Shown here piece by piece: positions 2,361 through 20,844 of a stretch of 64,000 nt of DNA. The translations under genes were made by a program, and so were the position numbers. Source of the DNA: Asterias amurensis (taxonomy: Eukaryota); assembly GCF_032118995.1 (NCBI RefSeq), contig NC_092653.1:7251031-7315030 (forward strand). Reading direction: 5' to 3'. The notes beneath the pieces were generated by a model. That model worked only from the letters and a program-made list of their open reading frames with translations, had not been told where the DNA came from and made no database searches. Every line of letters begins with the position of its first letter. Within the stretch, counting starts at the first letter, position 1.

Positions 2361-2419
2361 AAATAGATAAGATGGTAAGAGTCTTGTCATGCAGTGTCCA
2401 TGCTCACTGTGTACAGTAA

Positions 2420-2790
2420 TATTAAAGGAACACCATGCCCTGGATCGGTCGAGTTGGTCTTCGAAAAGCATTTGTAACCATTTGTTATAAAATACATATG
2501 GTTAGAAAGATATTTTAAAAGTAGAATATAATGATCCACAAAAGTATCACTCGAAATTGCATGGTTTTCCTTTAACCTCGTCGACAAACACGGTCGGCCA
2601 TATGATCGACCGTGTTAGCTCGCAAAGTAAAAGGAAAACCACGCAATTTCGAGGCAAATGTGTGTGGATCATTGTATTCTACTTTTAAAACATCTCTCTA
2701 ACCATATACATTTTATAACAAACGGTTATAAATGCTTTTCAAAGACCAACTCGGTCGATCCAGGGCATCGTGTTCCTTTAAATTCTGCAA
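2420..2790. mobile_element. Foldback (hairpin) MITE copy 1 inside STYXL1 intron 3: an approximately 370-bp near-perfect palindrome
   Basis: The left arm 2420-2600 is the reverse complement of the right arm 2610-2790 (...gatcggtcgagttggtcttcgaaaagcatttgtaacc... mirrored); it produces mirror-image ORFs on both strands. Confidence 0.75.
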
Positions 2791-3104
2791 AAGCCAGCTG
2801 GACTGTACTTTCTATCCATGCTCAGTATGGTGTTTTGAGTTTGAACAGAGAGGAAATGAGAAGGCTGGGTTTTGTGAAACTTCGATCCATGGCAAACACC
2901 ATGCTTCTCAACATGCCTCGTTCTTAACACATTGTGGAAGACCATTCCCCTTTTCGCCCCACACCATCACCAGCAGTCACCGAAAGTTTATCTTTAAAGA
3001 TAATTTTAAACTTTGCCCGGTGGAACATGATGTACATGGGTTCACTGAAAATCTTATTAGGAAGTATATTATAACCTTTTAATCTCTTTTAATTATAACT
3101 TCAG

Positions 3105-3387
3105 GATCAGCTGTCGCTTGCGCCCAAGTCATGTCAGAAATGGGAAGTAGGAACCCGGTCAAAATCCTTCGAGGGGGATACGAGGAGTTCTCCGCCCTCT
3201 ACCCATTCCTCCGAACCCAGAAGATCATCTACATGCCGAGGGAGCTGGATGAGCTTGTGCCTTACCCCGTCGAGGTCCTACCGGGACGGTTGTATCTTGG
3301 GGATTGTCGGCAGGCATGCAGGACTTCTGTCAGGAAAGAACTAAAGATCAAGGCAGTGGTGTGCCTGACGACTGAGGCCAATGAACT
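3105..3387 (+). CDS. STYXL1: STYXL1-like exon 4 (end of the rhodanese domain, ...ILRGGYEEFSALYPFL, and start of the DSP fold, LPGRLYLGDCRQA...)
   Basis: Long ORF bounded by acceptor cttcAG and donor GTAAGG; similar to the MKP/DUSP rhodanese-to-catalytic-domain junction; an alternative acceptor 6 nt downstream (3110) is also in frame. Confidence 0.75.
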
Positions 3388-3885
3388 GTAAGGATAAGTT
3401 ACTCTGAAAAGTTATGCTTTTGTGTAAACACTGGGATGTTATTCAGTCAATTTGGAGGTTGAACATAGACAAATTGACTAGAGTGGGATTTGAACCACTG
3501 ACCTAGATTTGAACCAACCGGCAAGACATAATGTTTAGATATGTAGATATACAAATGGTGTACAGCAAACCACACAGTCATGTTTGATCATTACGTTAGA
3601 GGACACCTATTGTACACTGTTTGAAGCAATCCCTATGGGTTTTGTACACAAATGACTAGTGAGGACCCATGAAAACAAAGAACCGACTAGTGAGGACCTA
3701 TTGTCCCTATTGACAAATGTCCTCGGAGTGTAGGCCATACCAACCCACACATACATGTATATACATTGATACCTCACCATGCAATGCGGCTAAACTTATA
3801 CCAACCCACACATACATGTATATACATTGATACCTCACCATGCAATGCCGCCAAACTTTTGATGACTTGTTTTTTTCCCCTCCAG

Positions 3886-3986
3886 AGCCAGTGAGCTGAA
3901 CAGTGATCAGCTTCTTCAAATTCAAGTCTCAGATGATGAAGAGGGTGACTTGGATCCACACTTGAACCCAGCATGCCAATTTTTAG
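3886..3986 (+). CDS. STYXL1: STYXL1-like exon 5 (ASELNSDQLLQIQVSDDEEGDLDPHLNPACQFL)
   Basis: Acceptor ctccAG and donor GTAAAC; phase is consistent; DUSP-fold region preceding the P-loop. Confidence 0.7.
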
Positions 3987-4529
3987 GTAAACAGAGTTTG
4001 CAGACACTTTTCTTTTTCTTGGATTTGTTAAAATTTCTACTTCAGCTGTCCAACATTTATGGGGTTCATCCACTTCAACAAATGGTTTATATATACCAAC
4101 AAAACGGTAATTCCTGAGTCTGAGTTTTAAAGTCATCAAAGCATCCCACTTGAACATTTATTATGGTAGGACTAAATCTTACCTAAACTTCATTTAGTAT
4201 AGGTACCAATATTTTAAAATCCTCAATACAGGAAAAGCATCAACTCTTTATTGAACCAAGGATTTTTTTAATGAATATATATTTTGTATCTCATTTTTAA
4301 AACAAGTGTAACAACTTGTTGCAAACACATGAGAACGTAGAGTTGTTGTTGTAAATCATGTACTTTATTATATAAAAAAATAGAGAGTATATAAATTTAT
4401 GTATTTATTTATTAATATAATTCTGGTTTAGAATTCATTGATTCTATGAAAACTTAACTTAATCACTTTACTAGCCAAGAGCCCAATGGAGAGGAGACAA
4501 GGAAGAAAGTTTTAGTTTTAGACATGGGA

Positions 4530-4665
4530 GAAAAAAAAACCCAGAGAGTTATTTCAGGGAAAACCCATGCCATCAGGTAGGGCCTGAAAACCAATCCATA
4601 TTTAGTGCCCCCTGCGGGATTCGACCAGGGGTCATAGAGGTGGGAGACATGCACTTGACAAATGA
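4530..4665 (-). mobile_element. tRNA-derived SINE, family A copy
   Basis: ...cagggaaaacccatgccatcaggtagggcctgaaaaccaatcc...gggattcgaaccagggg..., homologous to 2215-2360. Confidence 0.55.
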
Positions 4666-4696
4666 TTTAACTGTTTCTTCCCTGTCTCTGTTTCAG

Positions 4697-4809
4697 GTAA
4701 AGTCATCGGTGCAGACCAAGCTGCTTTGGTATGTAGCGATCATGGACTTAGCCGCAGTGTCAGCGTGGTGCTGGCTTACCTCATGGTGTTCTACAAGTGG
4801 TCACTAAAG
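4697..4809 (+). CDS. STYXL1: STYXL1-like exon 6 carrying the degenerate P-loop GKVIGADQAALVCSDHGLSRSVSVVLAYLMVFYKWSLK
   Basis: An active DUSP has VHCxAGxSRS. Here the His is replaced by Cys and the catalytic Cys by Ser (CSDHGLSRS), the hallmark of MK-STYX pseudophosphatases. Acceptor tttcAG and donor GTAAAA. Confidence 0.8.
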
Positions 4810-5530
4810 GTAAAAGTTTCATGTTTTTCTCAACAGATGTCAAAGTAAAAAACAAAATGAAAGCCTTTATTTTTTTTTAAAGGTTTTAAGGCTAGTTCCA
4901 ATTTGAGGTGAACAACAAATTGCGAAGAGTAACAGTTCACAAAACTTAGTGATCACATCTATACATGTACATGTATACGCCAGGGCCGAATTTCAAAGAG
5001 CTGCTTAAGCACTAACAGTAGCAAGCACAACAAAATTGTGCTGATCAGAATAAGGTTAACAGCCAAAATACCATGTCATATTGTACAATTTATTGTGGTA
5101 TCCTGCTCATTCATTTCTACTAAGCAGTAAATTGTTAGCAATATTTTTTGCTTAAGCAGCTCTGTATTATCACAGTGTATTCTGTTTTTATCTAAATCAT
5201 CATTTTGTATGATACCGGCACATGAGATAATAGTGAAATGGAAATAAATGTTGAATTGAATTGAATTATGAAAATGGGCCTTGCAGGGTAATCAGGTTGG
5301 CGTAGTGGTATCTTTCCTCTCTATTCACCTCTTTTTTGGGGTTTCCCTCCCACATTTGAAACTAAAAACTTCATTCTTTGTCTTCCTTCCACGAGGTTCT
5401 CAGCTAGTACAGTGATTAGGCTGACTTTTCTGACAGTCCTTGGCTTCCCAACCAGATTTAAAATAAAAACATAAAATAAATGTACTAAAACAATTTATGA
5501 ACCTGTACAATTTGTTAATTTTTTCAACAG

Positions 5531-5662
5531 GAAGCTCATAAACATCTGCTGGATTGTAAGAGTAACATCCGTCCACATCGATCATTTGTACATCAGCTCT
5601 CCAAATGGGAGAAGACGGTATTTGGCGAGACGCTTACCGATGTTAGCGATCCAAACTTCTAA
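5531..5662 (+). CDS. STYXL1: STYXL1-like terminal exon (EAHKHLLDCKSNIRPHRSFVHQLSKWEKTVFGETLTDVSDPNF*), stop TAA at 5660-5662
   Basis: Acceptor caacAG; C-terminal DUSP-fold motif (RP..SF..QL...E); in-frame stop. Confidence 0.8.
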   Translation, partial: EAHKHLLDCKSNIRPHRSFVHQLSKWEKTVFGETLTDVSDPNF

Positions 5663-5814
5663 ACAGAAATTCAATATTGAGCCACACAACTGATATAATG
5701 CCTTAATAAGGGAAAGGTACATCATTCTAATCAACCAATGGTGTATTTCCATAGTGGTATCTATACGTTGTTGGTGGTTTTAGATTGACCCTCCTACAGT
5801 ATCTCCCTGGCTCA

Positions 5815-5930
5815 AGGACACAAGCGCTACGACCTGGACTCGAACCCACGCTCTTTTGATCAGAAACATCGGAGCTTGAGTTTGGATGCTCTTAATCGCT
5901 TGCCTACAACACACCACCCAAACTATAAAT
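5815..5930 (-). mobile_element. tRNA-derived SINE, family B
   Basis: ggactcgaacccacgctcttttgatcagaaacatcggagcttgag...; similar copies at 17590-17690, 20430-20540, 24615-24735, 26480-26545 and 28215-28270. Confidence 0.5.
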
Positions 5931-6445
5931 TGCACAAGGTACAATATGAAAGAATTTTCTATAACAACATCTTCCCTCTTCATTGGCTTCCTGCTAAAAA
6001 ATGTACAGGCTATGAAATAATACAATAGCCGGTTCCTTTGATGATGTAGCAACACTTAACGTTTTGGCTCAGTGATGTATAAATAGATTTCTAAATATGT
6101 TAAGCATAATGCTTTAGTAAAGGTTTACCGACAAACAGATTCTGATTGTAAGTGAAACTTTACTTAAACCATTATGCAGTTGTTACCCCTGGACTGAAAA
6201 TATCAATGAAGACTTAAGAGGGTGTCTTTTCTACAAAAACAAATACATAATTTATTTATAAACATGATATTTCAGTATTCCGCCCAAATACAATGATTAA
6301 ACTAACACCTAGCTGAACATGCTTGATCAGAATGTGTTGTTAAATGTTTTTGTAAAAACAATTACACCAGTATTTACACTGTTTGTATAGTTATCATGAT
6401 GGCAACAATGAGGCCTGTTATCAGTGTAAGATATTATGAACCTAA

Positions 6446-6451
6446 AATAAA
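6446..6451 (+). other. Candidate polyadenylation signal AATAAA for the STYXL1-like gene
   Basis: AATAAA about 785 nt downstream of the stop; no other obvious AATAAA lies closer. Confidence 0.3.
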
Positions 6452-6736
6452 CCCATTGTATATACTTAACAAGATAATTGTATTAAAATTATTTTGTGCT
6501 TTTTAAGAAATTTCGGAGTGGAGTAAAATTAACAGAAGAGATGACTCTGTGGTTAAGTGGAAACAAGTTGTTTAACCAGCTCTCCAAAACTAGAGTTAAG
6601 ATTACAAAAGGCAGGTCGATTAGCCCCCACCCCCCCCAAAAAAAAAAAAAAGGAGAAAAAAGTTTTGACTATGACTAAAGTCAATACAAACAGTCTATAG
6701 ATACATGCGCAACTATTAGAAATAATACAATTAATA

Positions 6737-7297
6737 TCAGGATACGACAGACCCAGTATATGTCCCTGCAATTGAAAGGACTTCCCTCCCCACCGTCTCC
6801 TCAGACCCACCATCTAAAAACGTCTCGGTCAGTTCCCTGAGCGTAATGGCAAGTCGTCTGGCGATTATTGCCCCTCGACATATTCCATGATTCCAGTCGT
6901 GTCTTGCGGCACCAGATACAACAATCAGACTCCGCGCTGGGAGTGGTATCCTTACAGTCAGGGCGGTTTGGGGGTCATGCTCGGCAGAGGTCGTATCTGA
7001 GGTTGTAACTGGGGTCAGATCTGAGGTCGTAACTGGGGTCATGTCCAGAAAGGTTCCCGACAACAAGTTGATTGTTATTAATCTCTCTCCCCATAACCAG
7101 CTGTCGTCCCTGTGGGGATCAATGGAGGACCCTCTGTCTGGGCGATAGTCAAGATTGCACAGTTCCACGGGGACAAAGTCGCCCAGACCAGGGTGTGAGT
7201 TTATGCGATTCACAAAGGGTTGGATGAACGGAGGCAGCCCTGTAAAACTTCCAGTTTTAAGTTTCCTTCGTTTGAAATTTACTTTTGGTCCGTAGTC
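6737..7297 (-). CDS. ALKBH4: ALKBH4 terminal exon (DYGPKVNFKRRKLKTGSF...VELCNLDYRPDRGSSIDPHRDDSWLWGERLITINLL...RIPLPARSLIVVSGAARHDWNHGI...RRLAITLRE...*)
   Basis: Matches human ALKBH4 block for block, including the Fe(II)/2OG dioxygenase HxD...H motifs (IDPHRDD, ARHDWNH) and RxxxTFR; acceptor ttcacAG on the minus strand at 7299-7298; stop at 6737. Confidence 0.85.
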   Translation of the reverse strand, partial: DYGPKVNFKRRKLKTGSFTGLPPFIQPFVNRINSHPGLGDFVPVELCNLDYRPDRGSSIDPHRDDSWLWGERLITINLLSGTFLDMTPVTTSDLTPVTTSDTTSAEHDPQTALTVRIPLPARSLIVVSGAARHDWNHGICRGAIIARRLAITLRELTETFLDGGSEETVGREVLSIAGTYTGSVVS

Positions 7298-7329
7298 CTG
7301 TGAAACAAAACAGAGATCTATAAACTTGT

Positions 7330-7930
7330 TTTTAATTTAATCTTGGTTTTTATCACAAAGAATGAGAAACACAAATATATGATATCATTTTGTTTGAAAT
7401 ATATTTTTCAAAGAGTTCAATAACTTCAACAATATTGCAAATTAAAAAAGTATATAAATTTTAAGTAATTGGAGAGGTTTACACATTTAATTCTAATTGT
7501 TAATGACCAGTGATTAAAACTAAATTTTTTAAAAGGTTGTTCACAGAGTTTAAAATCTTCAACAAAATTTACAATTAAAAGAATAAGAACCTTTACAAAA
7601 AGAAATAACTAAAATAACACAAAATTGGCAAGGTTTAAACAAACAACTTTATACATTGTTAATGACTGGTGACTAATATAAGTTTGTTTATTAAGATTTT
7701 CCAAAAAGTTAAAAATCTTCAACAAAATTTACAAATAACAAACGTAAGAACTTCAACAACATTGAAAGTTACAAAATAAATCATTGGGCAAATTTTAAAC
7801 AAACAATGCTCAGTTGTTAATGATCAGTGATAAAATAAGTTTGTTTTAAAAAATAAACAAAAGAAGTCATTGGCCAAGTTTTAAACAAATAGTTCTAAAA
7901 ATTGTAATTGAGCAGTGATTTTTTACACTA
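7330..7930. repeat. AT-rich tandem (satellite-like) array of about 125 bp x 4-5 in ALKBH4 intron 2
   Basis: Repeated ...aaaatcttcaacaaaatttacaa.taa.aa..taagaac...ttaaacaaacaa...ttgttaatga.cagtgat... units. Confidence 0.7.
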
Positions 7931-7966
7931 ATAAAGAGTTAACTAAAATAAAATCCTTTGTCTCAC

Positions 7967-8197
7967 CTGTTTCCATCGCCCAGACTGAGACGGTTTCCAT
8001 GGTGACTCATCAATAATCTGGACAATTTCTGCCTCTTCTTCTTCAGACACAAACTCAGGTATGAGAATGACTCCTGGAAAAACAAGACCATTCCCGGAGT
8101 GCTCCTCACAAGTCGACGTTACTATTGACTTCTCTTTAAAACTTTCTGTCTGTTGATACGCTTCATTACACATCCAGCAGTAAATGTACCGCTTCTC
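7967..8197 (-). CDS. ALKBH4: ALKBH4 exon 2 (EKRYIYCWMCNEAYQQTESFKEKSIVTSTCEEHSGNGLVFPGVILIPEFVSEEEEAEIVQIIDESPWKPSQSGRWKQ)
   Basis: Minus-strand acceptor ttttacAG and donor GTGAGA; matches the human YRFIYC...WAFPFPGVMLIEDFVTREEEAELV...PWKLSQSGRRKQ block. Confidence 0.85.
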
Positions 8198-8625
8198 CTG
8201 TAAAAAATAATACAAACACACTTTTCTGAATTTGCTTGTGGTTCATTTTTTTCTACAAATCTGTGTTTTTTTAAGTTTAGTATTGCTTGTGGTTCAGCAC
8301 ATCTTCTTTGTAACAAAAATAAAATATTCTGACCTCTGGAAATTATATTATATTTCCTCTGGCAAAGTCAAGTTTTGGTGTTCAGTTTGCAGTTAGCCTC
8401 ACTGGTATCTATTTCTTGAAAAATTATGCAGAAAACAAACATTTTATATTCATAATTTCTTAAACTCAAACACTTCGGCAGCTGAACAGCAAGGAATTAT
8501 TAGTAAGAATTATTTAACTACTTCTTGAATTGACGTTTCATGGCCCAAATGTTTTTCCTTGAATGAATTTTGACAGATGACACTGTTCAGAAAAAAAAAA
8601 AAACATGATAAAACTTTGGCATATT

Positions 8626-9370
8626 CTAGACCCAGTATTCAGTAACTGGGGCGCTGTACTCCTTTTGTTTGAAGTTTGTCATTATCTATTGTTATTTAGT
8701 GACAAATTTTGAAAAAAGGAATTCAGCGCCCTGGGTCTGAGTTCTACCTCCATGGTCTGGGCTACTCCTAGAACTATGCGGTGTGTTCCCAGACGCGTGT
8801 CCATATGTTTTGTACACAAAGCACAGATCAGGTATTTTTTCTTTCCAGGACGAACGTGTGCAGATAATTCTCCACGTTTGTCCTGGGGGAAAAAAAAAAA
8901 TTCGCACGTACCTCGCAACGCGTCGGGCAATCGGCATTTGTATTGTAGTGGTAAAATGGAGTAGTTGGGGGACTGAATTACGGTAAGAATTTATAATTTT
9001 TAACAATTTTTAAGATTGCGGAGTGGATTCTCTGGACGTCCCCCCAATCAATGAGAGTTTTAAGGACAAATACATAAAGCCTAATTTTGGCGTGATCTAA
9101 ACTTTATACCAGAACCATAAAAAAAGCAGACTCGTTAGTGTCGTGAGAGATGTCAACCTATGAGGTTATGGGAGATGATAGCGGAACGAAATCACATAGT
9201 TCTAGGAGTAGGTCTGAGCATGGAGAGAGAAAAAAAATATATTTCTACCTCACTGGTCTGAGCATATGCCACTGACAATCAAGTGCAATAATTTTACAAC
9301 ATTTAGAAATAGTTCGATTGAGAACGTCAACATTTCTAAAAATGGAGTACAATGCCCAAGTTACGGGTCT
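8626..9370. mobile_element. TIR-bounded element (about 745 bp) in ALKBH4 intron 1, with nested inverted repeats
   Basis: Outer inverted repeats tctagacccagtattcagtaactggggcgctgtactcc (8626-8662) and ggagtacaatgcccaagttacgggtcta (9343-9370); inner inverted repeats at 8735-8780 and 9195-9240. Confidence 0.5.
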
Positions 9371-9692
9371 AATTTTAATTTACTTTTTTGAGATATCCCT
9401 TTTTGTTAAAAATAGTGAAAAAGTAGTGGCGCCATATGGAAAGTTATCCTATCTTTCTTTAAAAATATTCCCTATAAATAAGCATTACGTTCACAAAAAA
9501 CAATAAACTTAGTTTATTTGCAGAGAGTTTCAGACCATGTTGACATACAAAACTCTTGACTGGTGAGGGACAACAGCGCCCTCATCGGCAATTGCCGTTG
9601 AGAAATAAAAGAATGAACACAAATATCTGAACAATTCCGACAAAAGTCACGGGTCGAAGTTGAAAAAAAAAACTTATATAATAGAAACTTAC

Positions 9693-9800
9693 ATGTGGTG
9701 ACTTTGATGTGACAGTACTTTGCGAAACACCACAGCCATTTTCACATAATAAACAAGTTCTTATGCCCTTACACCCACATTTCTCTACCCAATCCACCAT
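9693..9800 (-). CDS. ALKBH4: ALKBH4 exon 1 (MVDWVEKCGCKGIRTCLLCENGCGVSQSTVTSKSPH), start codon at 9800-9798
   Basis: Conserved N-terminal CGCKGIRTCLxCE motif (human ECGCKGIRTCLICE); minus-strand donor GTAAGT after 9693; upstream in-frame Mets at 9833 and 9878 are possible but not supported by homology. Confidence 0.7.
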
Positions 9801-11362
9801 TTTCACACAATATGTGCGTATGGTCCAGTACATGTAGCCCAAATAAACACGACTATGGATGACGATGAACGCGCCCAATAGCCCCCGAATTGGGCTTGGA
9901 TATCGCCCGATTATGGGATATCCTCAAAGAGGGCGCTATACAAATTATACAGCGCCCTCCTCCTTTTCTCTTTGTGACGGCGACGCGGCGGTCACAGGTT
10001 GGCTCATATTTTTCAACGGATCGTCTCAAAAAAGTTTGTCGTTTTGGAAGATCTTGAGGTGTTAGCTTCTGAGAAGGCAAGGAAACATTCATCGACTCGT
10101 AAGTAACCCTTTCGTAAATAAATTATATTAATTCAAACAGTGGATGTTCTCGTTTCATGGGAGTGTCGATCGCGCCACTTTGCTCAATTTTGAGCGACAT
10201 TTTTTTTCCAGGGGCGCGTCGCGACAAGTAACAAATTTTCAAACATGAGATCGCAGTTTTTAGACAATATTTTAATGAATCTTTATTGATTACAATAAAT
10301 CATATTTTACCAGATATTCTAGACGTGCTAAAAATGGAAAAAAGTGAGGTGATCTTGTATGAATTTCGGGTTAAATATCCAATCACTTGCCATGGTCCCA
10401 AAATTATTTTTATATTTTGATGATTTTTTCATCTCGTTTCCGTCTATAGAGGGCGCTGTAAAAGTACAATTTGCATGTTTGTTTTGGTTTCATTCAAAAG
10501 TTTTACTGAGTCATTTATGACTGAAAACAAAATTGCAATGGTACCTCACGGGTTCCCATGAAATTTGAAACAGGATTACTAACAATAACATGAATTTTTA
10601 ATTTAAAAATTTATAATTTGCAAAAACTATAGTAGAGTTGACCTGCACAGGAAATAAAATTACTCAAATAAAAAGTATTATTGATATATATTGGAGTGAA
10701 TGACCAGAGAGAACAGACCAAAGCCAAAGGTTTAGGCATTTTTTTATTTTTCAATTATAATATATCACTGTATCAAATGGTACAACATTATCTGTTCAGT
10801 TCCATTGTGTTGTTAAATTAAATGTTTTGGTCTGAAAATCGTCAAATGTGGTTTACTTTCTCACAGAAAAAACACTTTAAAAATGCCACTCTTTTCATGT
10901 CCTTGAATGTTCTTTCTTTCAATTCAATTCAATTCACTTTATTTCCAAATCCAAACAAATAAACAAAACAATTAGCAGTGAATAAAGAACTATGTTTTAC
11001 AAGCAAATGGAATAATGATAATACATGAAGTAATAATACAACATTTACAAGCAAAAGCAAAATATAAATTACGGAAAACAAAACAAAACCAAAACAGAGC
11101 ACAAGGTGATGGGGTTGTAGGGGCCCATAAAAAGCAATGCTTGTCGAGGATGGACCCCCCCCCCCTCCTTACGGAAGCAAACTAATAGGTGGAAAGAGCG
11201 AGTAAAATGTAGTGGCATAAAAAATCAGTTTACAAGAAGAAACAAACACAATACAGTAGGCGCTATTCTAAATAAATTCTAAGCAATAAATTAAGAGCTT
11301 AACATAAAACATCAACTAAACCATTTGTTTTTTTGCCCACAACTTTAATCCAGTATAGAAAG
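9801..11362. promoter_or_regulatory. Divergent promoter region between ALKBH4 (-) and LRWD1 (+). It contains a 9-bp inverted repeat GAGGGCGCT-N13-AGCGCCCTC at 9929-9959 and further copies of the (C)AGCGCCCTC / GAGGGCGCT(G) motif at 9574-9583 and 10448-10458
   Basis: Head-to-head gene arrangement; the motif recurs three times in about 900 bp (four half-sites); a candidate non-coding LRWD1 first exon ends at the donor GTAAGT at 10098. Confidence 0.45.
10000..10098 (+). other. LRWD1: Candidate non-coding 5' exon of LRWD1 (5' boundary and TSS unknown), spliced to the acceptor at 11352-11353 just upstream of the ATG
   Basis: Strong donor cgactcGTAAGT at 10099; a polypyrimidine tract plus AG (tttgtttttttgcccacaactttaatccAG) at 11353, 9 nt upstream of the start codon. 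Confidence 0.35.
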
Positions 11363-12388
11363 ATGTCAGAAAACGCTAACATCCCCGCTGACCCAACACC
11401 TACAGAGCCCGATCTGGTGCCCCCTGCTGAAGAAGCTGCACCCATTCTCCAAGTCGAGCCTGTCATTTCAGAGGAAGCTCCTGTCCCTGAAGACGATTCC
11501 ACTCCACAACTCCCGGCAGCAGTCGAGCCCGAGCAGACCCTTGACCTCATTCCAGAGGCCCAAGTCGAAAGCGTCCCAGTCCTTCAACCGGAATCAGTGC
11601 CTGAAATCCCAGCAGAGGCGATCCAGAATGCAGCGGAGCTAGCCCAGACCGTGACTTCAGAGAATGTTCTCCAGATCGCCCTTGAGGCGGTCCAAGCCGT
11701 CGCGGAAGCTGTACCCACAGAGGGCATTCCGGAGCAAGTTCCCCAGCTTGCCCCGCAACCCCCAGAAGCAGCCGAACCGACGGTCGAGCAAGTGATGTAT
11801 CCAGTCGCCGATCAGATTATTCCCGTTGAAATCATCAATGCTCCACAAGAGCAGCAAGAGGGAGAGCAAGTCGCTGAACCCGTCCTGGAGGCCGTCCTGG
11901 AACCCGTCATGGAATCTGCCCTGGAACCCGCCATGGAACCTGCCCTGGAACCTGCCATGGAACCTGCCATGGAACCTGTCCTGGAACCCGCCCTGGAACC
12001 CGCCTTGAACGAGGTGGCTCCTGAGCCCCAGGTCGAACAGACCCTAGCTGCCATGCCAACTCTAGAGCCACCATCCATTGTGCAACCCTACAATCCTCAA
12101 CACACCGCCCCGGCCATCTCTCCACCCAAGATCACATCCTACACGGCTGTTCACACGACGACCGGCATCATGCGTTACACCCCGGGGATAATGTCTGCCC
12201 TCGCTGGCAAGTATTCCAACAGCAGTCAGTTGGTGGAGCAGCTGGTACTCAACTGCGCTGGCTGTATCTCCCTGTCGGATATCCGCGTTCTGGACATGTC
12301 CAATCGAAAGATCATGAACCTTGACCCCGCTGTGTTTTCCCGGATGCCGGAGCTGGAAGAACTGGACATTTCCTTCAATAAAATAAAG
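11363..12388 (+). CDS. LRWD1: LRWD1 coding exon 1: a Pro/Glu/Ala-rich low-complexity N-terminus containing an (EPALEPAM)n repeat, then the first LRRs (LDMSNRKIMNLDPAVFSRMPELEELDISFNKIK)
   Basis: 1026-nt uninterrupted ORF from the ATG at 11363 (the annotated ORF start at 11333 is a non-ATG codon); donor GTACTA at 12389; the C-terminal about 50 aa match human LRWD1 LRR1-2 (LDLSGLELL...LDLSNNHLE). Confidence 0.7.
11875..12010 (+). repeat. Coding minisatellite inside LRWD1 exon 1: a 15-bp unit (ctggaacc[ct]gccatggaacc[tc]gcc), about 9 copies, encoding (L/M)EPA(L/M)EPA repeats
   Basis: Directly visible tandem periodicity; the alternate-frame ORFs WNPSWNLPWN and the antisense GSMAGS are by-products of it. 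Confidence 0.85.
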
Positions 12389-12678
12389 GTACTAAGAATA
12401 AATGCTCATTGTAACCCTTGGTGCGACTCTAATAAAATACTTTAAGGCAAGGTATACTTTTGGGAATTGTCAAAGACCACTTTCCTCACTTGGTGTATTC
12501 AACATATACAATACCTGTGAAAATTTGGGCTCAATTGGTCATCGGAAAAAATCCCCTTGTTGCATAGAATTATGTGCTTTCAGTTTGTTTTTTTAGATGC
12601 CTAAGAAACCTATTTAACTCCATGCACCATTTTGTTTGAAATTCTGAGGCCTCGAAATCAAATTCAAATATTTTAGTG

Positions 12679-12830
12679 AGAAATGACTTCTTTCTCGAAA
12701 ACGACGTTCTTCAGAGGGAGCCATTTCTCACAATGTTTTATACTATCAACATCTCTCCATTGATTGCTACCAATTAAGTTTTTGTGCTAACAATTATTTT
12801 GAGTATTTCCAGTGCCTTTGCAATGGTTAC
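12679..12830. mobile_element. Partial copy of the GACACTATTGGTAAT-TIR MITE family (LRWD1 intron 1)
   Basis: Shares the internal ...ttctttctcgaaaac...gagccatttctcacaatgttttatactatcaac...attattttgagta sequence with the copies listed below. Confidence 0.6.
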
Positions 12831-12915
12831 TAAGCCTCAATATCCTTCACTGGAAGGAATTGGGACGGTAAGGTCCTTCGTTATAATTATAAGAGCCATT
12901 GTTTTTTCAAACCAG

Positions 12916-13047
12916 GGTTTTCCAACGCAGCTTGGCCTGAGGAAGCTGAGATACCTGAACCTCAAGAAGAACTCCCTCAAGAGTGTCTTGACACTGGAGC
13001 AGTTCCCCAACCTGGAGGAACTCAATATTGACGAGAATGACCTGAAC
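12916..13047 (+). CDS. LRWD1: LRWD1 exon 2 (GFPTQLGLRKLRYLNLKKNSLKSVLTLEQFPNLEELNIDENDLN), LRRs
   Basis: Matches human TLPDNLGLSHLRVLRCANNQLGDVTALCQFPKLEELSLEGNPF; donor GTAAGT at 13048; an alternative in-frame acceptor lies at 12930. Confidence 0.7.
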
Positions 13048-13713
13048 GTAAGTAGGATTTCAAGCAACCTCAATTCTGGGGGTGATAGACCTCGCAGTGC
13101 CAGTTTATCCCAGTAGGCAACTCGCTTAAAACCCCGGGAATTGGTTCAATTTTTCTGACATCTGGAACATCTTAAGTTATGCCTTTTGCCAATCCACTCA
13201 AGTATGGTAGTCTGCAAAACAGGCATCAAGTCAAAGAGCGACTGGTCTCCTGAGTTTTTCTTTGATTGTTGAAGTGCGAGATTTTATGTCCTCACCTTAA
13301 AGCGATTTCTGTTGGACCCCCAGAGTTCTGCAAAATGTTTCAATGCGAGTGAGGCTTTCACAGTTTATCACAAACAATACATTCCATTTTGTTTGGGCAG
13401 AAGGACCATTTCTTCCAAGGAAATCTTATCCCATACTGAGAAATGTTCATCATTTGAATATTGATCTCTGGGCCTGATAATAAACCATGTTTGACTATTG
13501 TTATTTTTTATTCGGTCAAGATTTAAACAAACATTACAAGATACAATATTACCGATAAAATATAACAGTACAAGAAACAACGAAAGTATACTTTTAAAAT
13601 CTTGGGACACCTTGAACAATATAAAACGAATGTTGAAATGGAAACGGAACACTGGTAGATTCAAAGAAGGAAAAACAAAACCGTATAATTTCTGTTTAAT
13701 TTCTCATGTGTAG

Positions 13714-13827
13714 CCCCCTGATCAGTACATAGCTGTGTACCTGCTACCCAAGCTGAAGAAACTCAATGGTAAAGATGTGGACATCCGGGACACCATTCAG
13801 ACAATGGAGGACACCCTAAGGTCAAAG
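13714..13827 (+). CDS. LRWD1: LRWD1 exon 3 (PPDQYIAVYLLPKLKKLNGKDVDIRDTIQTMEDTLRSK), LRR cap
   Basis: Matches human LKVSFLLPTLRKVNGKDASS; acceptor tgtgtAG and donor GTAAGA. Confidence 0.75.
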
Positions 13828-14157
13828 GTAAGATAATTAGGAGTATGTGAGGTCGTTTGGTGTTAATCCTCATCCAATTTCAATGTCCTTTCCAAAAACA
13901 CCAATTTCAACCAAGTTGGCCCAGTCGTTACTGATTGATGGTAAGTTGAATATCAGCGGTTGCGCTATCATCTGATCACCTCCACTCGCACATTTGTACC
14001 GAAACCAGCGAGAAAGAGCATGCTGTAGCGTAAAAGACGTTAATCGGATAGAGCTTAACTTTAATTTGAGCTTGTTAAGCCAAAATTACCTTTATCCATA
14101 AAGAAGACAACACCTCATTTCAACATCAACAAATGTATATGTCTTTTTCCGTTGTAG

Positions 14158-14310
14158 ATGTTGAAGATCTGGGAGGAGGAGTATGCTGCTCGGAACGAGA
14201 TGCCCCTCAACAAGGCCGAGACGAGATCACTGGAGACGGAGTTTGTTGAACGCCTCAAGGAGTCCATCCAGTACGGACCAGGCTCCCTGGTGGAATTCAC
14301 TCATCACATG
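14158..14310 (+). CDS. LRWD1: LRWD1 exon 4 (MLKIWEEEYAARNEMPLNKAETRSLETEFVERLKESIQYGPGSLVEFTHHM)
   Basis: Matches human ...ADFVKSAVRDVRYGPESLSEFTQW; acceptor gttgtAG and donor GTGAGT. Confidence 0.8.
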
Positions 14311-14732
14311 GTGAGTCAGAGTTTCCTGACGATGCCCATAGCAGGCTCAATGAAAATGACCCCCTCAATTTTCTATCCTCTGCCAAGGTAGTAGTTTATA
14401 AGGAGGACAGTTCTTTTCAGAACTGGAAAAGTTTCCAAACAAATTTGAAAATGGAAGTAGAGAAGTCTCCCAAAATGTACTCCGCAGTTGTAAAATAAAA
14501 ATGTTGAGTCAGACAAGTTCTCAAAAGGAATATAATCTACCCAGCAAGAAGATAAACACACGGTGTTTCCTTGTCATCTTTAACTTGGATCTTTACAAAA
14601 TCAATCAATTACAAAATATCATGAATAAGATTGTAAAAATTAGCTCCGAACAAATTGTCCCTCTACAGTTTATTTTAGTTGTTTGTTGCATCGGATTTAA
14701 GAAAGTGCGCTTCTTTTGTGTACATTTTACAG

Positions 14733-15413
14733 CTGTCGGTACTTGCGGAGAAGCACGTAACCACGCAGACTGCCTACTGGCGCAAGACGGTTCCCGAACT
14801 CATCTCCACTTCAAATCAGAGCCCGTCCGCCAGCAAGATCAGCATCAAACTGCCCATTAAAGCCGAGTCCCCTACGCCAGACGACGTGGAGAAGCCACAG
14901 GGAACTTCAAACTCTCTCGCAGCGAGCCTAGAGGCGGCCGTCAAGGAATCGGACGCAGAGTTGGCAGGCGAAGCCGGACAGGAGACCCCCATGGATGAAA
15001 ATGACGCTCCAGAGGCACCGGCTGACACCCCTGCAACACCAAAGCAGAATTCCCCAGCCCAGGCCGTGACTAAATCTCCAAGGAAGATAACCGTGGTTGC
15101 CGCGGGGAGTAAAAGTCCCGCAAAGACCCCGACGAAAGCCACAACGTTGAAGAGGGCTGCACCCTCTGAAACTAATGCTACGAATGGAGACGAACCAAAT
15201 GCGAAGAAGGCTAAAGAAGGTGACGAGGAGGAGGCGGTCGTTAAGAAAAAGAGGGGCAGGCCGATCGGTTCGGGAGGCAAGTACACCAAGAAAGACCCTG
15301 CTAAGCCAAAGGCCATCAAGACGGAGCCTAAATCAGAGTCTAGAGTCAGGGCAGCCTCTGCTAAGCTAGCCGCTAGTGTTACAAGTGTTAGTAGTGATGC
15401 CAAGAAAGAAAAG
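14733..15413 (+). CDS. LRWD1: LRWD1 exon 5: 227-aa basic/Ser-Thr-Pro-rich linker containing KSPAKTPTK and the AT-hook KKKRGRPIGSGGK
   Basis: Acceptor tttacAG and donor GTAAAA; corresponds to the disordered linker of human LRWD1 (VRMISEELVAASRTQ...); the frame is continuous with its flanking exons. Confidence 0.75.
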
Positions 15414-16059
15414 GTAAAATACAGAGTTTTGGTTGTTTCGAGTTTAAAGACTTCTTGACTGATTTGGGGGGTTTTACCCAAACAATTGGGCTAAGTTTCC
15501 AAACGCTATTATCCCCTTGAAGTTATTGTCTGACAGCATAAACCAAAAGCCATTAAGTTTGGCAAATGAATGTTCAAGTTCATGGTTTTTGTTTCCTCTG
15601 TAAAAACAACCTTATTTTTGTTACCATCATTAGATAAGTGATGATTTTTTGTACTCGGGATGTGGTGCTATTTGTGTGGAAGCTTGGTGTGCTAAAGTCA
15701 CCAATGGTAAAGAAGAGGGGTACGAGTGCAGTCGATGTGTATTGCCCAGCACCTTGAGGAAAGGGTTGCTTGTAAATCATTGCTGTGATGTACATTGTTG
15801 AAATGTATCGGACATTAACCTTACATAGTTAAGCTCTAAAATTGCATCTTTGTGAGGGCAAAGACTTTTTTTTGGTAAAGGACACTTCCATTGAAAAATT
15901 TCAAAGTATTTGGAAAAAGTTTGACGGACACCAATGCCAAGGCAGTGGCTTCTGTGCAACTCCAGGTATAAAATGTATCTAGCGGGAACGATGTAGCTAC
16001 ACATTTTTTATAAACCTCATTTTTTTTTATAAACCTGAACTATTTTTTTGAACTTACAG

Positions 16060-16180
16060 AAAGTGTCGAGTGGATACGAGGTGATTCACATGCTCCGATG
16101 CCACTCCATGGAGAATGACCCGACTGATGCCAAGACCAACGTCTGGAAATGTGCATTCGAGCCTAGCCTAGAGAAACCAG
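16060..16180 (+). CDS. LRWD1: LRWD1 exon 6 (KVSSGYEVIHMLRCHSMENDPTDAKTNVWKCAFEPSLEKP), start of the WD40 domain
   Basis: Matches human LHFLQCHSKNNSPQDLETQLWACAFEPAWEEG; acceptor cttacAG and donor GTCAGT. Confidence 0.85.
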
Positions 16181-16375
16181 GTCAGTATGGCACACCTTTA
16201 TAACTAGAACTGGGAGTCCCCTTTAGGCTTCTGGAAGATTGAGTAAAAACTTTCACAGATTTGTTTTTTGATGCAGTGTCCAGTGCCTTTGACTTGACAG
16301 TTATACCTCTGTAACCCTAACCCTAAAAATCTTAAACTCGTCCATCTTGCTAACTATCTTCTCTTATTCCTATAG

Positions 16376-16482
16376 GTACAAGTAAGTGGACGGTAGCCTC
16401 TTGCGGAGGCAACACGGTGTGTGTCATTGACTGCAGTACAGGGAAAGTGCTCAAGAAATACCAGCATGCTAAAGACAAGGAG
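16376..16482 (+). CDS. LRWD1: LRWD1 exon 7 (GTSKWTVASCGGNTVCVIDCSTGKVLKKYQHAKDKE)
   Basis: Matches human ATSQTVATCGGEAVCVIDCQTGIVLHKYKAPGEE. Confidence 0.85.
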
Positions 16483-17098
16483 GTAGGTCTTATATCATCT
16501 CATAAGGGAGCGTCTCAAAAGTCCGAACTGTAGGAACGTTCTTTTTGGATCGCAAGAGTATCCCCGCCGCTTTACTTGGACCGGTCCTTTGGACCGCCAG
16601 AGCGATCTTTTGGATCGTTCCAAATGCGTCCAATGCGTGACCGCGTCCAATCTCATGTTAGAACGTTCCTAATGTCATGATGTTGCGATCCTGCGGGCAT
16701 ATGCCCGCAGGAACGTTCTTTTGCGCTAGGAACGTGCCCGACTTTTGAGACGCTCCCTAACAAGCATAAGTTCCAATACAAATTTACAATTTTCTCATAG
16801 AAATCCCCCTTCTAAGAGGAAAGCTGCGTTGCCTCTTTAAAACTGGTCCCTCCTTTTTGCAACTCCCTCAATACACAGCTCTGAGTTGTGCCAAACAGAG
16901 CACATGACCCGAAACATTAAGAACAAACTCGCTGAGAACCATCAAGCTTTTCTTCTAAGAATATTGAAGAAAAGATTCAGTATTCTCTCAAGAAAGGAGA
17001 AAAGTATCCCCCAGTAACCAGAATTCAATAATCATGATCAATGATCGATCGACTCATAAAATACTCGTAAATTATCTGTTGATTTCTCGTCTGACTAG

Positions 17099-17312
17099 GA
17101 GTTCTACTGCGTTGCATGGACCACCATCCCGATGGAAGCAGACGAGGAGGGAGCTGAGAAATGTAACATCCTGGCCGTAGCGGGCACCAGGGGCAGCGTC
17201 AAGCTCCTACACACCAGCCAGCTACTATGCTACTCAGAGATCAAGGGAGACAGGCGTCCGAGACCCATCAATTCACTGCTGTTCCATCCGGTTAACTCAA
17301 CCTGGCTCATGT
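17099..17312 (+). CDS. LRWD1: LRWD1 exon 8 (EFYCVAWTTIPMEADEEGAEKCNILAVAGTRGSVKLLHTSQLLCYSEIKGDRRPRPINSLLFHPVNSTWLM)
   Basis: Matches human EFFSVAWTAL...SVLAAAGLRGLVRLLHV...FSPAHETHL; donor GTGAGT at 17313. Confidence 0.85.
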
Positions 17313-17379
17313 GTGAGTTTTCAGATTGGTTTAATTTCGTTTTATTTATTCTTCTTCTTCCTTTCTGGTTGTGCAGCCT

Positions 17380-17530
17380 TCATGATTGAAGATAAACACA
17401 CTGCCAGACACACCGTGGCAAACCCCTTTTCATGATTGAAGATAAACACACTGCCAGACACACCGTGGCAAACCCCTTTTCATTATTGAAGATAAACAAA
17501 CTGCCAGACACACCGTGGCAAACCCCCTTT
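17380..17530. repeat. 50-bp tandem repeat x3 (catgattgaagataaacacactgccagacacaccgtggcaaacccctttt) in LRWD1 intron 8
   Basis: Three near-identical consecutive units. Confidence 0.85.
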
Positions 17531-17779
17531 TCTTTGCAATAAGTGTGTACTGGTTTTTTGGACAAAGAACTAAGCAATGGTTAAAAGGACACAGTGTTAC
17601 GGCTGGGACTTGAGCCCTCTGCTTGCTGATCAAAAACACCAGAGCTTGAGTTCAGTACTCTTATCACATGGGCCACGACACCCCTGGTTGTGAATTTGAA
17701 AGACTATCAGAAAAACAATTAATCACCGCACTAGCCAGGGACCCAAATGGAGAGAAGACAAGGAAGGAAGTTTCAGTCT

Positions 17780-17935
17780 TAGATGTGGGAGGAAAATCTC
17801 AGAGGATTATTCCAGGGAAAAGGCCCACGCAGTCAAGTAGGGACTGAAAACCCAATCCACATAGTGCCCAATGCAATTCAAAATGGGGTTTTATAGGTTG
17901 AAAGTGAGGAAAGAAACCACTCTGCCAACCTGATT
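17780..17935 (-). mobile_element. tRNA-derived SINE, family A copy (diverged)
   Basis: Homologous to 2215-2360. Confidence 0.45.
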
Positions 17936-18110
17936 ACCCTAATGGTTATTAAGTTAATCCTGCAACTTTCAATTACATTTGTTAGTTGACAGCGAATTGG
18001 AAATCATCCAACTGCATTGGTTGCATTGGATAGTACAACTGCGCACAGAAACACAACAACAAGATAACAACATGAAAAATGATTTTTACTTCTTATCGTT
18101 TGTTTTCCAG

Positions 18111-18180
18111 GTGGGTCAGAAGACATCATCATCTGGGACATTGGAATTCCAGAGGGGCCAGACTATAAATGCAAAACAAA
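18111..18180 (+). CDS. LRWD1: LRWD1 exon 9 (CGSEDIIIWDIGIPEGPDYKCKT)
   Basis: Matches human YDKRIILWDIGVPNQDYEFQ; acceptor ttttccAG and donor GTAAGT. Confidence 0.85.
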
Positions 18181-18346
18181 GTAAGTAGACAGGTAGCTTT
18201 TAACTATCATTATCTTTAACCGTGTAATTTTATTGTAAAATTGTGGACGTTTGTGTTTTGTGTCGTACAACAAGTATCCAAACCCTTTAAACTTTGCAAA
18301 GCCACGTCTTCATTTGTGTTTTCCCTTCTGTTTTTAATCTTTGCAG

Positions 18347-18487
18347 AAAGATGTATCACCTGGCCGCCCCCGGTCGTGTGCTCGGCCTTGTTGCCTTGCC
18401 GTCAACTGACTTCATACTGGCAGGATGTGAAAACGGTTGCTACGGATGGAGGATAGATAACAAACAACCCTTCGGCAAGAAGGGAAG
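18347..18487 (+). CDS. LRWD1: LRWD1 exon 10 (KMYHLAAPGRVLGLVALPSTDFILAGCENGCYGWRIDNKQPFGKKG)
   Basis: Matches human ...ARLLAGCEGGCCCWDVRLDQPQKRR; acceptor tttgcAG and donor GTAAAA. Confidence 0.8.
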
Positions 18488-18989
18488 GTAAAAATTCTCT
18501 GCCACGTCTTTGAGCCGGCGGAAACGCTACTACGTACCACAGAGCTCAATACACTACACCCCAAATACTGAATATTTTTTATATCGAAAAACCTATGAAT
18601 AAACTTGATTTATTACAATCGATTTGAATCTATTGTGCTGTTTAGTCATGCGTGCATGAAGTTTGCATATCTCGACCAAATAAGGGAATTTACACTGGAG
18701 TGTTGGGTATTCGAAACTGGGTATGGATTGCGCCTCGTTGTATAAAAAGTATGGATCCCTAGAACGGTCATGATTTGTTAAAAATAGATACCATCATAAG
18801 AACCAAATAAATATATTCACATCAAATTACCAAAGTTATATCAACTGAAAATGCATGCGCAACAGATGAATATCAAATCACATCACAATGAAAGTAAGCC
18901 TTATTTCTCATTTCATAAAAAAAAAAAAACAGAATTCCAATTTTCAGGATTTGATGTTCATAAGTAGTTTTCCCGATTGGTCTTTGCAG

Positions 18990-19120
18990 AGCACACAGCG
19001 TGGAGTTTCTTCTGCCGAGTAAAGCGCGTCTCGCCGAAGCCATCAAAGGTGATGAAGAGGAGGAGGAAGGGGAGGGCGATATGATAGATGGACTGGCTCT
19101 ACTCAACGATAAACTAGTCG
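18990..19120 (+). CDS. LRWD1: LRWD1 exon 11 (RAHSVEFLLPSKARLAEAIKGDEEEEEGEGDMIDGLALLNDKLV)
   Basis: Matches human VEFVFSEGSEASGRRVDGLAFVNEDIV; acceptor tttgcAG and donor GTAAGA. Confidence 0.8.
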
Positions 19121-19928
19121 GTAAGAGACATCGTGGACCAATGGGAGACTTTTTATGTATTTTTTTGTATGCAAGTTTGCCCCAGACAAGGCTGAAAGTC
19201 ACTCTTGGTTGGGGCTACAAGACGAAACATTATTTAAAGTGTATATAGCTCAGGGGAGCTGAAGGTAGTAATTCCTCTCAAACCAGTCTAACTGTAGGAT
19301 GGAGGGAAACATGAACCAGGCGAGGAGTCCCAGTACATGGAATAAAGCTATTGGAATTGCTCCTTGTTCTACATCCCAGCAAAGCAAGAGTGCATGGATG
19401 AGAAGAAGCAGAAAGTCTGGTTTCACACTCAAACTTCTGATATAGTGGATGCCTGTACCAATAAGGAAATCAAGGCACTTGAACAAGCATAACAATTTTG
19501 AGACGGTTTTTGAGTAATGAGACCAGTTAATGTAGCACAAGGTGCTGTGGTGCATTCAACAGCCACTTCCCTGCTGTGCAATCTTGAGCATCCTAACTGG
19601 TTTTATCTTGATATTTTTTTTTCGGATTTGATCTAAAGTAGCAATTTGCTGATTATTTTGTTTGGCATATTATTGGCCGCAATTCGCACGTATCGGCCTG
19701 ATACGCTTAGCTTGTGCATGGGGATATAACCAGGAGTGCGTGTTGGCGACCCCAACCAAAAGCTGTTTCTGACGTCATAACCAATACGGTAACCGAGCTC
19801 ACAACTCGGTTATCGTTCAGTCTGAACAGCAGAACCAACGACCAACAACCGAAACAGTTTTTGGTTGGGGTTCCCCAAACTGCACTCCATGTCCGAGTGT
19901 TACTAAACGCACTTCATTTCCATTGCAG

Positions 19929-20084
19929 CCAGTAAAGTCGCATGTGACGGAGCGATTCACGTATGGAACCTCGTTGATGCTCACAAGAAGAAACCAGTCA
20001 ACAAAGAGGTAGCTGTTACACCTCAGTGCACACTGAAATGGTGTGACTCGGACAGTGTGTATCTAGATATCGGAACATGGCAAG
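19929..20084 (+). CDS. LRWD1: LRWD1 exon 12 (ASKVACDGAIHVWNLVDAHKKKPVNKEVAVTPQCTLKWCDSDSVYLDIGTWQ)
   Basis: Matches human ASKGSGLGTICLWSW... WD repeat; acceptor cattgcAG and donor GTAGGT. Confidence 0.8.
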
Positions 20085-20734
20085 GTAGGTGGCATAATAA
20101 TAGTTGATTCTTAAATAGCGCTCATATTCGTCACTCAGTGACGCTCAAGGCGCTTTAACATACAGTATTTTCCTGCAAGGTATGGTGGACTACGTTTGAG
20201 TTATGAGACCTACTCCTTTTTACATAGCACCATGTAGTGGTTTACATGGTGCGGTAGTGCAACATGCTGCCAATTAGCCCTACTGCCAATTGAACCAGGA
20301 GCACCGGGGTGGACCCCTTCTCTTTTCGATAAGTGCACTGGGTTCTTTTACATGCCTTACACAACACACGGGACCAACGGCTTAACATCAAATCGGAAGA
20401 ATGAAGCAAGAAAGGTAAAGTGTCTTGCCTAAGGACACAGGTGTCAAGGCCGGGGCTTGAACCAACTCTCTGCTGATCAGAAGCACCATAGCTTCCAGAG
20501 TCCAGTGCACTTTAACACTCGGCCACGACACACCTTTACAATTCTCTCTCACAAAATTTCATGCAGTGGAAATATTGTCAACATGAAAACACACTATTTT
20601 CTAATCTACAACAAAGAGTACTGCTGTACAAATAGAGCTGTTAAACAGAATAAATGGAATAATGTTAAAAAAATGAATTACATTCTATTGAATCGGGCAA
20701 GGGTTTATCTATTTCTTCTTTCTACTCCTTTCAG

Positions 20735-20844
20735 GTTGTGGTACGATGGTGAGTGGTGACGATGAAGGCAAGATATGGGTGTATGACACTTCTAAACTAC
20801 CCATTGCTCCAGTCAAAACACCCACAACTAGAAAACCAACACAT
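20735..20844 (+). CDS. LRWD1: LRWD1 exon 13 (GCGTMVSGDDEGKIWVYDTSKLPIAPVKTPTTRKPTH)
   Basis: Matches human IVLCGDEEGNVWLYDVSNILKQPP; acceptor ctttcAG and donor GTAAGT. Confidence 0.85.

Follow-up and report, generated by a model that had tools for sequence, protein, structure and literature searches.

What is encoded by the long first exon of the LRWD1-like gene in the sea star Asterias amurensis? In the window analysed here, a 64,000-nucleotide stretch of contig NC_092653.1, a reading frame stays open far ahead of the leucine-rich repeats (LRRs), and it could be read either as an additional N-terminal part of the protein or as a 5' untranslated leader that precedes a downstream start codon. 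LRWD1, also called ORCA, connects the origin recognition complex with heterochromatin; of its domains, the N-terminal LRR domain has been understood least. The evidence set out below makes it highly probable that positions 11,363 to 12,169 encode a translated acidic N-terminal extension, which starts at ATG 11363 and which, among the echinoderms sampled, is found in sea stars only.

The gene at 11363-21868 is LRWD1/ORCA, as the original prediction had named it. A coding model assembled via tblastn with echinoderm LRWD1 proteins as guide comprises 14 exons and 1102 aa, all introns being GT-AG (Table 1), and its translation equals XP_071790662.1/XP_071790663.1 ("LRWD1-like", 1102 aa) residue for residue. 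Pfam PF23211 (LRR_LRWD1) matched residues 304-475 (E = 1.7e-23; 83.8 bits with a cut-off of 28), entering the profile at its position 15, and PF23215 (WD_LRWD1) matched residues 708-1100 (E = 6.7e-68). The best matches among solved structures were likewise LRWD1 (PDB 8siy, E = 1.9e-91; 8siu, E = 1.8e-65), as were 20 of the 20 best protein matches of the conserved pieces, with identities of 65% to brittle star, 57% to sea cucumber and 47% to crinoids, and with vertebrates and molluscs next. The DNA of the locus is collinear with that of related sea stars, and its upstream neighbours (a DSPc/rhodanese gene followed by a gene for a 2OG-Fe(II) oxygenase, the latter on the opposite strand) are common to A. 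amurensis, Asterias rubens and Acanthaster. The A. amurensis protein shares a protein cluster with A. rubens XP_033627098.1 (1088 aa) and was found on genome contigs only in an exact look-up.

Table 1. Features of the LRWD1 locus of A. amurensis, numbered from the first letter of the window; a slash in a sequence marks the candidate splice junction
Feature	Position	Strand	Remarks
Candidate non-coding first exon	9960..10098	+	GTAAGT donor at 10099; would join the acceptor at 11353; inferred
Polypyrimidine tract and CAG, candidate splice acceptor	11330..11353	+	9 nt before the ATG; tttgtttttttgcccacaactttaatccag/tatagaaagATG; inferred
Start codon of the long protein	11363..11365	+	Context gaaagATGt, A at -3; first ATG after TAA 11300-11302
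N-terminal extension, codons 1-269	11363..12169	+	Acidic, Pro/Glu/Ala/Val-rich, probably disordered
Conserved segment, codons 57-120	11531..11722	+	LIPE...VPVLQ.E.VP..P.EA...; present twice in Acanthaster
In-frame tandem array	11876..12010	+	E-[PAS]-[AV]-[LM]; TRF: period 12 bp, 11.3 copies
Conserved junction block, codons 226-269	12038..12169	+	AMPTLEPP..V..YNPQ...P.ISPPKITSYTAVHTTTGI
Ancestral part of the exon	12170..12388	+	Met270, Met277 and first LRR up to donor 12389; tblastn of Amphiura and Holothuria LRWD1
LRWD1 exons 1-5	11363-12388, 12916-13047, 13714-13827, 14158-14310, 14733-15413	+	GT-AG introns
LRWD1 exons 6-10	16060-16180, 16376-16482, 17099-17312, 18111-18180, 18347-18487	+	GT-AG introns
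LRWD1 exons 11-14	18990-19120, 19929-20084, 20735-20844, 21716-21868	+	GT-AG introns

A single open frame of 342 codons runs from ATG 11363 to the GT donor, and the extension, the ancestral start codon and the first LRR all lie in this one exon. The extension amounts to 269 codons ahead of Met270 (ATG 12170), or about 290 aa ahead of the LRR domain, and between 11363 and the LRR there is no in-frame stop, the nearest one upstream being TAA 11300-11302. The predicted frame of roughly 290 uninterrupted residues before the LRR is therefore present, and so is its low-complexity composition (P 17%, E 16%, A 14%, V 10%), with three aromatic residues and no cysteine, as would fit an intrinsically disordered region. 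Asp and Glu number 49 and Lys and Arg one, which gives a net charge of -48; no Lys or Arg occurs in the first 225 residues, and the first one in the protein is K256. The Acanthaster tail has a net charge of -31. Elsewhere in the Asterias protein the linker between the domains is basic (+9) and contains an AT-hook-like KKKRGRPIGSGGKY with an RGRP motif, and the remainder of the protein is about neutral.

Residues 1-269 matched no Pfam or PDB entry, and an HP1-binding PxVxL motif was absent from both the Asterias and the Acanthaster tail. A word-indexed protein search with exon 1 returned a single weak low-complexity match, and the same search with exon 1 of Acanthaster returned none. AlphaFold, run on the single sequence with no alignment, gave a pLDDT of 46.6 throughout, the LRR part being equally low, so that the model does not tell folded from disordered parts.

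The exon structure ahead of this frame was placed from the sequence and from the NCBI predicted models, and both are also the basis for regarding the extension as intron-free. An acceptor-like ...ttaatccag stands just before ATG 11363, and the layout of acceptor and ATG in Acanthaster matches it (tttttctttgtccag/cttaaaagATG). The Acanthaster start ATG is homologous and is preceded by a TAA two codons upstream, which itself lies downstream of the acceptor-like CAG. The candidate first exon contains no ATG, and the adjoining element at 9907-9996 is 82% conserved with Acanthaster, where its spacing to the ATG is similar. A coding exon further upstream, spliced to acceptor 11353, was considered and rejected, given the TAA before the Acanthaster ATG and the lack of an ATG in the candidate 5' exon of Asterias. 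With an upstream exon that is ATG-free and likely non-coding, ATG 11363 would be the first AUG past the probable splice acceptor, and the ribosome would read 269 additional codons before coming to the old start.

Several properties of the extension are those of coding DNA. The probability that the frame lacks a stop by chance is 3.5e-4 over the 269 codons, or 1e-3 when the repeat is excluded, and the remaining five frames of the region carry 6-10 stops each. The G+C fraction is about 0.28-0.36 in the flanks and climbs to 0.58-0.61 within 11363-12388, and base usage is strongly periodic: in Asterias, codon position 1 has 77% G+C and 5% T, position 2 has 1% G, and position 3 is even. Acanthaster has 6% G at position 2, and T at position 1 is 5-6% in both species. 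A codon model trained on the remainder of LRWD1 was positive in the frame of the extension only. The region also holds 10 AUGs, seven of them in frame, the first of which is in good context with A at -3.

The comparison with A. rubens, whose LRWD1-like protein has the same single-exon tail and is 99% identical overall, bears on the same point. Only two indels separate the extensions of the two species, of 6 bp and 36 bp, and both are in frame, whereas 13 indels occur in the 1 kb upstream, of which 1 is a multiple of three. Six synonymous and six non-synonymous differences were counted in the extension (dN/dS 0.34), a marginal departure from neutrality with a one-sided p of 0.056. The corresponding counts are 9 and 0 in the LRR (dN/dS 0), 22 and 7-9 in the linker (dN/dS about 0.10) and 20 and 0 in the WD40 domain (dN/dS 0), and in the ancestral part of exon 1 there are 4 synonymous and no non-synonymous differences.

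A more distant comparison was provided by Acanthaster planci XP_022093308.1, found by a full HMMER search of cluster representatives. Its LRWD1 has a homologous extension of 236 codons in the same exon, with a chance of 1.4e-3 that such a frame is open, and synonymous sites between Asterias and Acanthaster are saturated (pS 0.58-0.69, dS 1.1-1.9). Conservation nevertheless extends to the reading frame, to the position of the start and to the two ends of the extension. At the start, residues 1-30 are 53% identical (M..N....PTEP.LVP.AEEAAP.L). At the other end, the 44 codons directly before Met270, codons 226-269, are 75% identical with a dN/dS of 0.086 at a pS of 0.66, and the junction block ISPPKITSYTAVHTTTGIMRYTPGIMSALAGKYSNSS is invariant. 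The ancestral part of the exon that follows is 96% identical with a dN/dS of 0.027. Over the whole tail, identity is 43% and the aligned dN/dS is 0.30.

Between these two ends, the segment of codons 57-120 aligns locally with two copies in Acanthaster at scores of 75 and 97, which 0 of 500 shuffles matched; the copies lie 46 aa (138 nt) apart and represent an internal duplication. In the mid-extension, from about codon 120 to codon 225, similarity to Acanthaster is not significant (p = 0.13), and there the constraint is on frame and composition only. A retained intron in the mid-tail was also considered and rejected, as frame and codon periodicity are kept in both lineages.

The original prediction had left room for a downstream start, with part of the region as 5'UTR. 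The protein would then begin at Met270 or at Met277, the further Met seven codons past it (ATG 12191), and the long frame would be an artefact of prediction programs that take the longest frame. The position of Met270 (MRYTPG) fits this reading, since it aligns exactly with Met1 of the Amphiura protein (MQTSPG) and every non-asteroid orthologue begins at the equivalent position, and the sea-star models in public databases were predicted computationally. A leader would nevertheless have had to remain free of stops over 236-269 codons in each of two lineages whose synonymous divergence is saturated, to accept indels in frame only, to show strong codon periodicity and to come under purifying selection as protein directly before Met270. 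Ten AUGs in a would-be leader of 807 nt, the first in good context, would moreover block scanning to Met270. With both ends of the tail under protein-level selection and the whole tail held in frame, the 5'UTR reading is very unlikely, and the view of the extension as translated sequence is supported by the open frame, the codon periodicity, the in-frame indels and the constraint seen in Acanthaster.

It is improbable, if less so, that two forms are made, a long one from ATG 11363 and a short one from Met270 or Met277 by an internal promoter, alternative splicing or leaky scanning, with the tail as an isoform-specific module. Both methionines are conserved in Asterias and Acanthaster, and for each species the NCBI records contain two or three transcript models of one protein, which implies that 5' ends vary. 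Every listed variant encodes the same long protein, however, and leaky scanning beyond 10 AUGs is unlikely. The conservation of Met270 and Met277 may equally be due to constraint on the protein, as the block ISPPKITSYTAVHTTTGIMRYTPGIMSALAGKYSNSS is invariant throughout.

The single long protein that we prefer has a practical consequence for proteomics. Peptides that always start near the LRR region had been put forward as a result that would speak against the extension, but with K256 as the first Lys or Arg a tryptic digest yields a 256-residue N-terminal peptide and no usable tail peptide, and the test done with trypsin would yield a false negative. Tryptic proteomics is, in other words, blind to the tail.

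A comparison with LRWD1 from related species had been suggested as a check, and it places the tail in A. rubens and Acanthaster and in none of the other echinoderm classes sampled. The orthologues of Amphiura filiformis (P0002), Holothuria leucospilota (P0003), Anneissia and Antedon (P0005 and P0006) and Diadema (P0083) resemble the sea-star proteins over the LRR and WD parts (47-65% identity) and in the start motif M-x-x-[ST]-P-G / LVE+LVL. In the models of Amphiura, Holothuria, Diadema and Anneissia the start lies 13-33 aa ahead of the conserved LVE+LVL motif, and the DNA upstream of their ATG is AT-rich, the in-frame stop being 3, 55, 9 and 13 codons away, respectively. A holothurian protein derived from transcripts (P0004) begins at the short position too. 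The extension is thus absent from the brittle-star, sea-cucumber, sea-urchin and crinoid LRWD1 sampled, and the tail is sea-star-specific among the echinoderms sampled. The sea stars sampled belong to two orders, Forcipulatida and Valvatida, and both have it. The split between these orders is deep, for which the saturated dS is direct evidence.

Vertebrate LRWD1/ORCA (647 aa in human) has the same order of an N-terminal LRR, a disordered linker and a C-terminal WD40 propeller, but it begins at the LRR domain and lacks the acidic N-terminal tail of the sea-star protein. That human LRWD1 begins essentially with the LRRs, as stated in the original prediction, is in line with the use of residues 1-127 as the ORCA LRR fragment (PMC4442312). 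In the human protein it is the WD40 domain that binds ORC and repressive histone marks (PMC4442312).

Part of the tail is repetitive. A coding tandem repeat had been predicted as a 15-bp minisatellite with about nine copies of EPALEPAM; the array is real, but its period is not 15 bp, which was rejected by both TRF and the register table in favour of 12, 24 or 36 bp, it does not consist of nine EPALEPAM copies, and its unit is the tetrapeptide E-P-[AV]-[LM]. The consensus unit is GAACCCGTCCTG (E-P-V-L), with 83% matches and 0% indels, and the alternatives given by TRF for the same array are 24 bp x 5.3 and 36 bp x 2.5, with scores ranging from 130 to 163. Read in register, the 11 units are EPVL EAVL EPVM ESAL EPAM EPAL EPAM EPAM EPVL EPAL EPAL, flanked by the degenerate units QQEG and EQVA before and NEVA after. 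Differences between units are synonymous (GAA/GAG, CCC/CCT, CTG/TTG) or conservative (V/A, L/M, P/S/A/T).

The variation in array length that had been anticipated is borne out between species, where the array changes by whole units. A. amurensis has 11.3 copies and A. rubens 8.3, and the 36-bp difference is exactly three 12-bp units; besides these three units, A. rubens lacks one Pro-Pro pair relative to A. amurensis. Acanthaster, unlike Asterias, has no 12-bp array and has instead the 46-aa duplication. The head-to-tail units, the lack of frame-breaking indels and the whole-unit difference in copy number between sister species are features shared with in-frame coding micro- and minisatellites, the 12-bp unit of the LRWD1 array standing at the border of the two classes.

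Such turnover raises the question of how much of the translated tail is selected. Proteins in the search of representatives, among them P0057, which is Cys/His-rich and has (ESALEPAM)n, and P0058, with (NPILDPVL)n, matched residues of about 165-225; homology was rejected, as these are unrelated proteins with similar tetrapeptide repeats. A substantial, though less likely, alternative is that most of the tail, including the 12-bp array, is neutral filler and that only the two conserved ends are under selection. The near-identical repeat in the unrelated P0057 indicates that such arrays arise easily, and both the three-unit difference between sister species and the missing array in Acanthaster would be expected of filler, as would a core that is unalignable between the orders (p = 0.13). 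The acidic core is, on the other hand, almost free of Lys and Arg in both species (net -48 and -31) and contains about 17% Pro. Composition is thus conserved where sequence is not, which suggests selection on charge and disorder.

We therefore favour a translated tail of three parts: about 30 conserved residues at the start; a core that is variable, very acidic and free of Lys and Arg, and that changes by in-frame duplication and slippage, as in the 46-aa Acanthaster duplication and the 12-bp Asterias array; and a strongly conserved Thr/Pro-rich junction beside the LRR. As to function, the tail may act as a flexible polyanionic arm that modulates contacts with chromatin or with the linker. A segment with a net charge of -48 could contact basic partners electrostatically, either the protein's own RGRP linker or histone tails, and could in this way tune the engagement of chromatin by LRWD1.

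The junction may in addition be phospho-regulated. It contains S-P-P-K (residues 253-256) in both Asterias and Acanthaster, a putative CDK site by its fit to the consensus [ST]-P-x-[KR], and the junction T-P of Asterias corresponds to S-P in Amphiura.

Acidic disordered tails occur in chromatin proteins, for example in the C-terminus of HMGB1 and in stretches of histone chaperones. By analogy, the sea-star tail would be a further long Lys/Arg-free polyanionic segment on a chromatin-binding protein, one that has in addition a basic segment of the DNA-binding type, the RGRP of the linker. It differs from HMGB1-type tails in being Pro/Ala/Val-rich instead of pure Asp/Glu and has no sequence relationship with them.

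A more specific account, which we regard as unlikely, is that the tail arose de novo in the sea-star stem lineage from a non-coding leader or intron by repeated in-frame expansion of short Glu/Pro-rich units free of stops and is now a functional regulatory module that masks the linker or mimics nucleic acid or histone partners. Were this so, the invariant S-P-P-K/T-P junction would be a cell-cycle phospho-switch, and sea-star ORCA would be regulated unlike all other animal LRWD1.

Whatever its origin, a tail of 270 residues of polyanionic character, placed on the LRR domain and kept for as long as living sea stars have existed, amounts to a natural experiment in modifying the N-terminus of the protein. 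It exemplifies an N-terminus shifted upstream of a retained ancestral start codon and a probably disordered region whose charge and frame, but not whose sequence, are conserved, and its array exemplifies a change of in-frame repeat copy number between sister species.

For three sea stars the long LRWD1 protein is already among the models predicted by NCBI, and disordered extensions confined to one lineage are common. The interest of the finding is therefore modest: sea-star LRWD1 is a known protein in a form particular to its lineage, a tidy evolutionary case that is unsurprising in kind. Among the ten best-ranked of 3,540 literature matches, none mentioned LRWD1, and no paper linking it to sea stars was found there. 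Acidic low-complexity sequence is present in the LRWD1 of other echinoderms as well, in that Diadema and Holothuria have insertions of this kind near the C-terminus instead of an N-terminal tail.

The acidic N-terminal extension of LRWD1 has diverged from A. rubens about threefold less at synonymous sites than the remainder of the CDS, with differences at 6/191 and 51/563 sites, respectively (Fisher p = 0.007). The neighbouring intron and upstream DNA diverge from A. rubens by 1.5-3%, which is equally low. One possible cause of the low synonymous divergence of the extension is that mutation is locally less frequent close to the promoter; another is an added constraint at the nucleotide level.

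Charged disordered segments have been gained at different ends of LRWD1 in different echinoderm classes, as the insertions seen in a sea urchin and in Holothuria lie in the last WD40 region. In the sea urchin Diadema (P0083/P0204, 1071-1107 aa), the insertion is a low-complexity segment of about 330 aa, first acidic and then basic, which is placed inside this region between ...LLPWPENNEQ and DRIIVNDVAISSDCKF. In LRWD1 of Holothuria leucospilota (P0003), the insertion at this position is acidic and shorter.

The repeat region of the extension also matched two unrelated proteins with long arrays whose tetra- or octapeptide units are near-identical, (ESALEPAM)n in a Cys/His-rich protein (P0057) and (NPILDPVL)n in P0058. 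Homology of these arrays was rejected, and the likeness is read as convergent low complexity. No sea-star LRWD1 was among the hits of the word-indexed protein search, despite the presence of the A. rubens and Acanthaster proteins in the collection searched; these were found only via exact look-up and the full HMMER representative search. The "no hit" results of the word-indexed search therefore carry limited meaning here.

Upstream of LRWD1, gene order and orientation are kept in all three sea stars (A. amurensis, A. rubens, and Acanthaster). About 1.4 kb 5' of the LRWD1 ATG lies a non-coding element in which Asterias and Acanthaster share 82% identity, even though synonymous sites between them are saturated. 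The element contains the palindrome GAGGGCGCTATACAAATTATACAGCGCCCTC, the arm of which may resemble a CTCF-type core, and an extra GAGGGCGCT copy occurs at about 10449 of the window. Since LRWD1 and the 2OG-Fe(II) oxygenase gene are oriented divergently on either side of the element, it is probably a promoter or insulator element common to both genes. A separate poly-C run (about 11-12 C) is located 200 bp 5' of the ATG; in A. rubens, the run is shorter by 2 bp.

Features of LRWD1 and its upstream region in the window and at the A. rubens (L001) and Acanthaster planci (L002) loci
Feature	Strand	Window	L001	L002	Remarks
Neighbour region		about 1-9850	1-8442	1-3333	
Dual-specificity phosphatase/rhodanese-domain gene	+				upstream of LRWD1 in three sea stars
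2OG-Fe(II) oxygenase (ALKBH-like) gene	-				upstream of LRWD1 in three sea stars
Conserved non-coding element		9907-9996 (also 10159-10220)		4487-4583	
Poly-C run		11154-11165			
N-terminal extension	+	11363-12169			
AT-hook-like motif KKKRGRPIGSGGKY		15243-15284			exon 5, residues 646-659, basic linker
Tandem repeat		17379-17532			LRWD1 intron 8; 50-bp unit, 3.1 copies, 97% matches

The AT-hook-like motif in the linker is conserved in Acanthaster, where its counterpart is KRKRGRPLGSGGKY. RGRP motifs are present too in the linkers of crinoid LRWD1 and in the C-terminal insertion of Diadema LRWD1.
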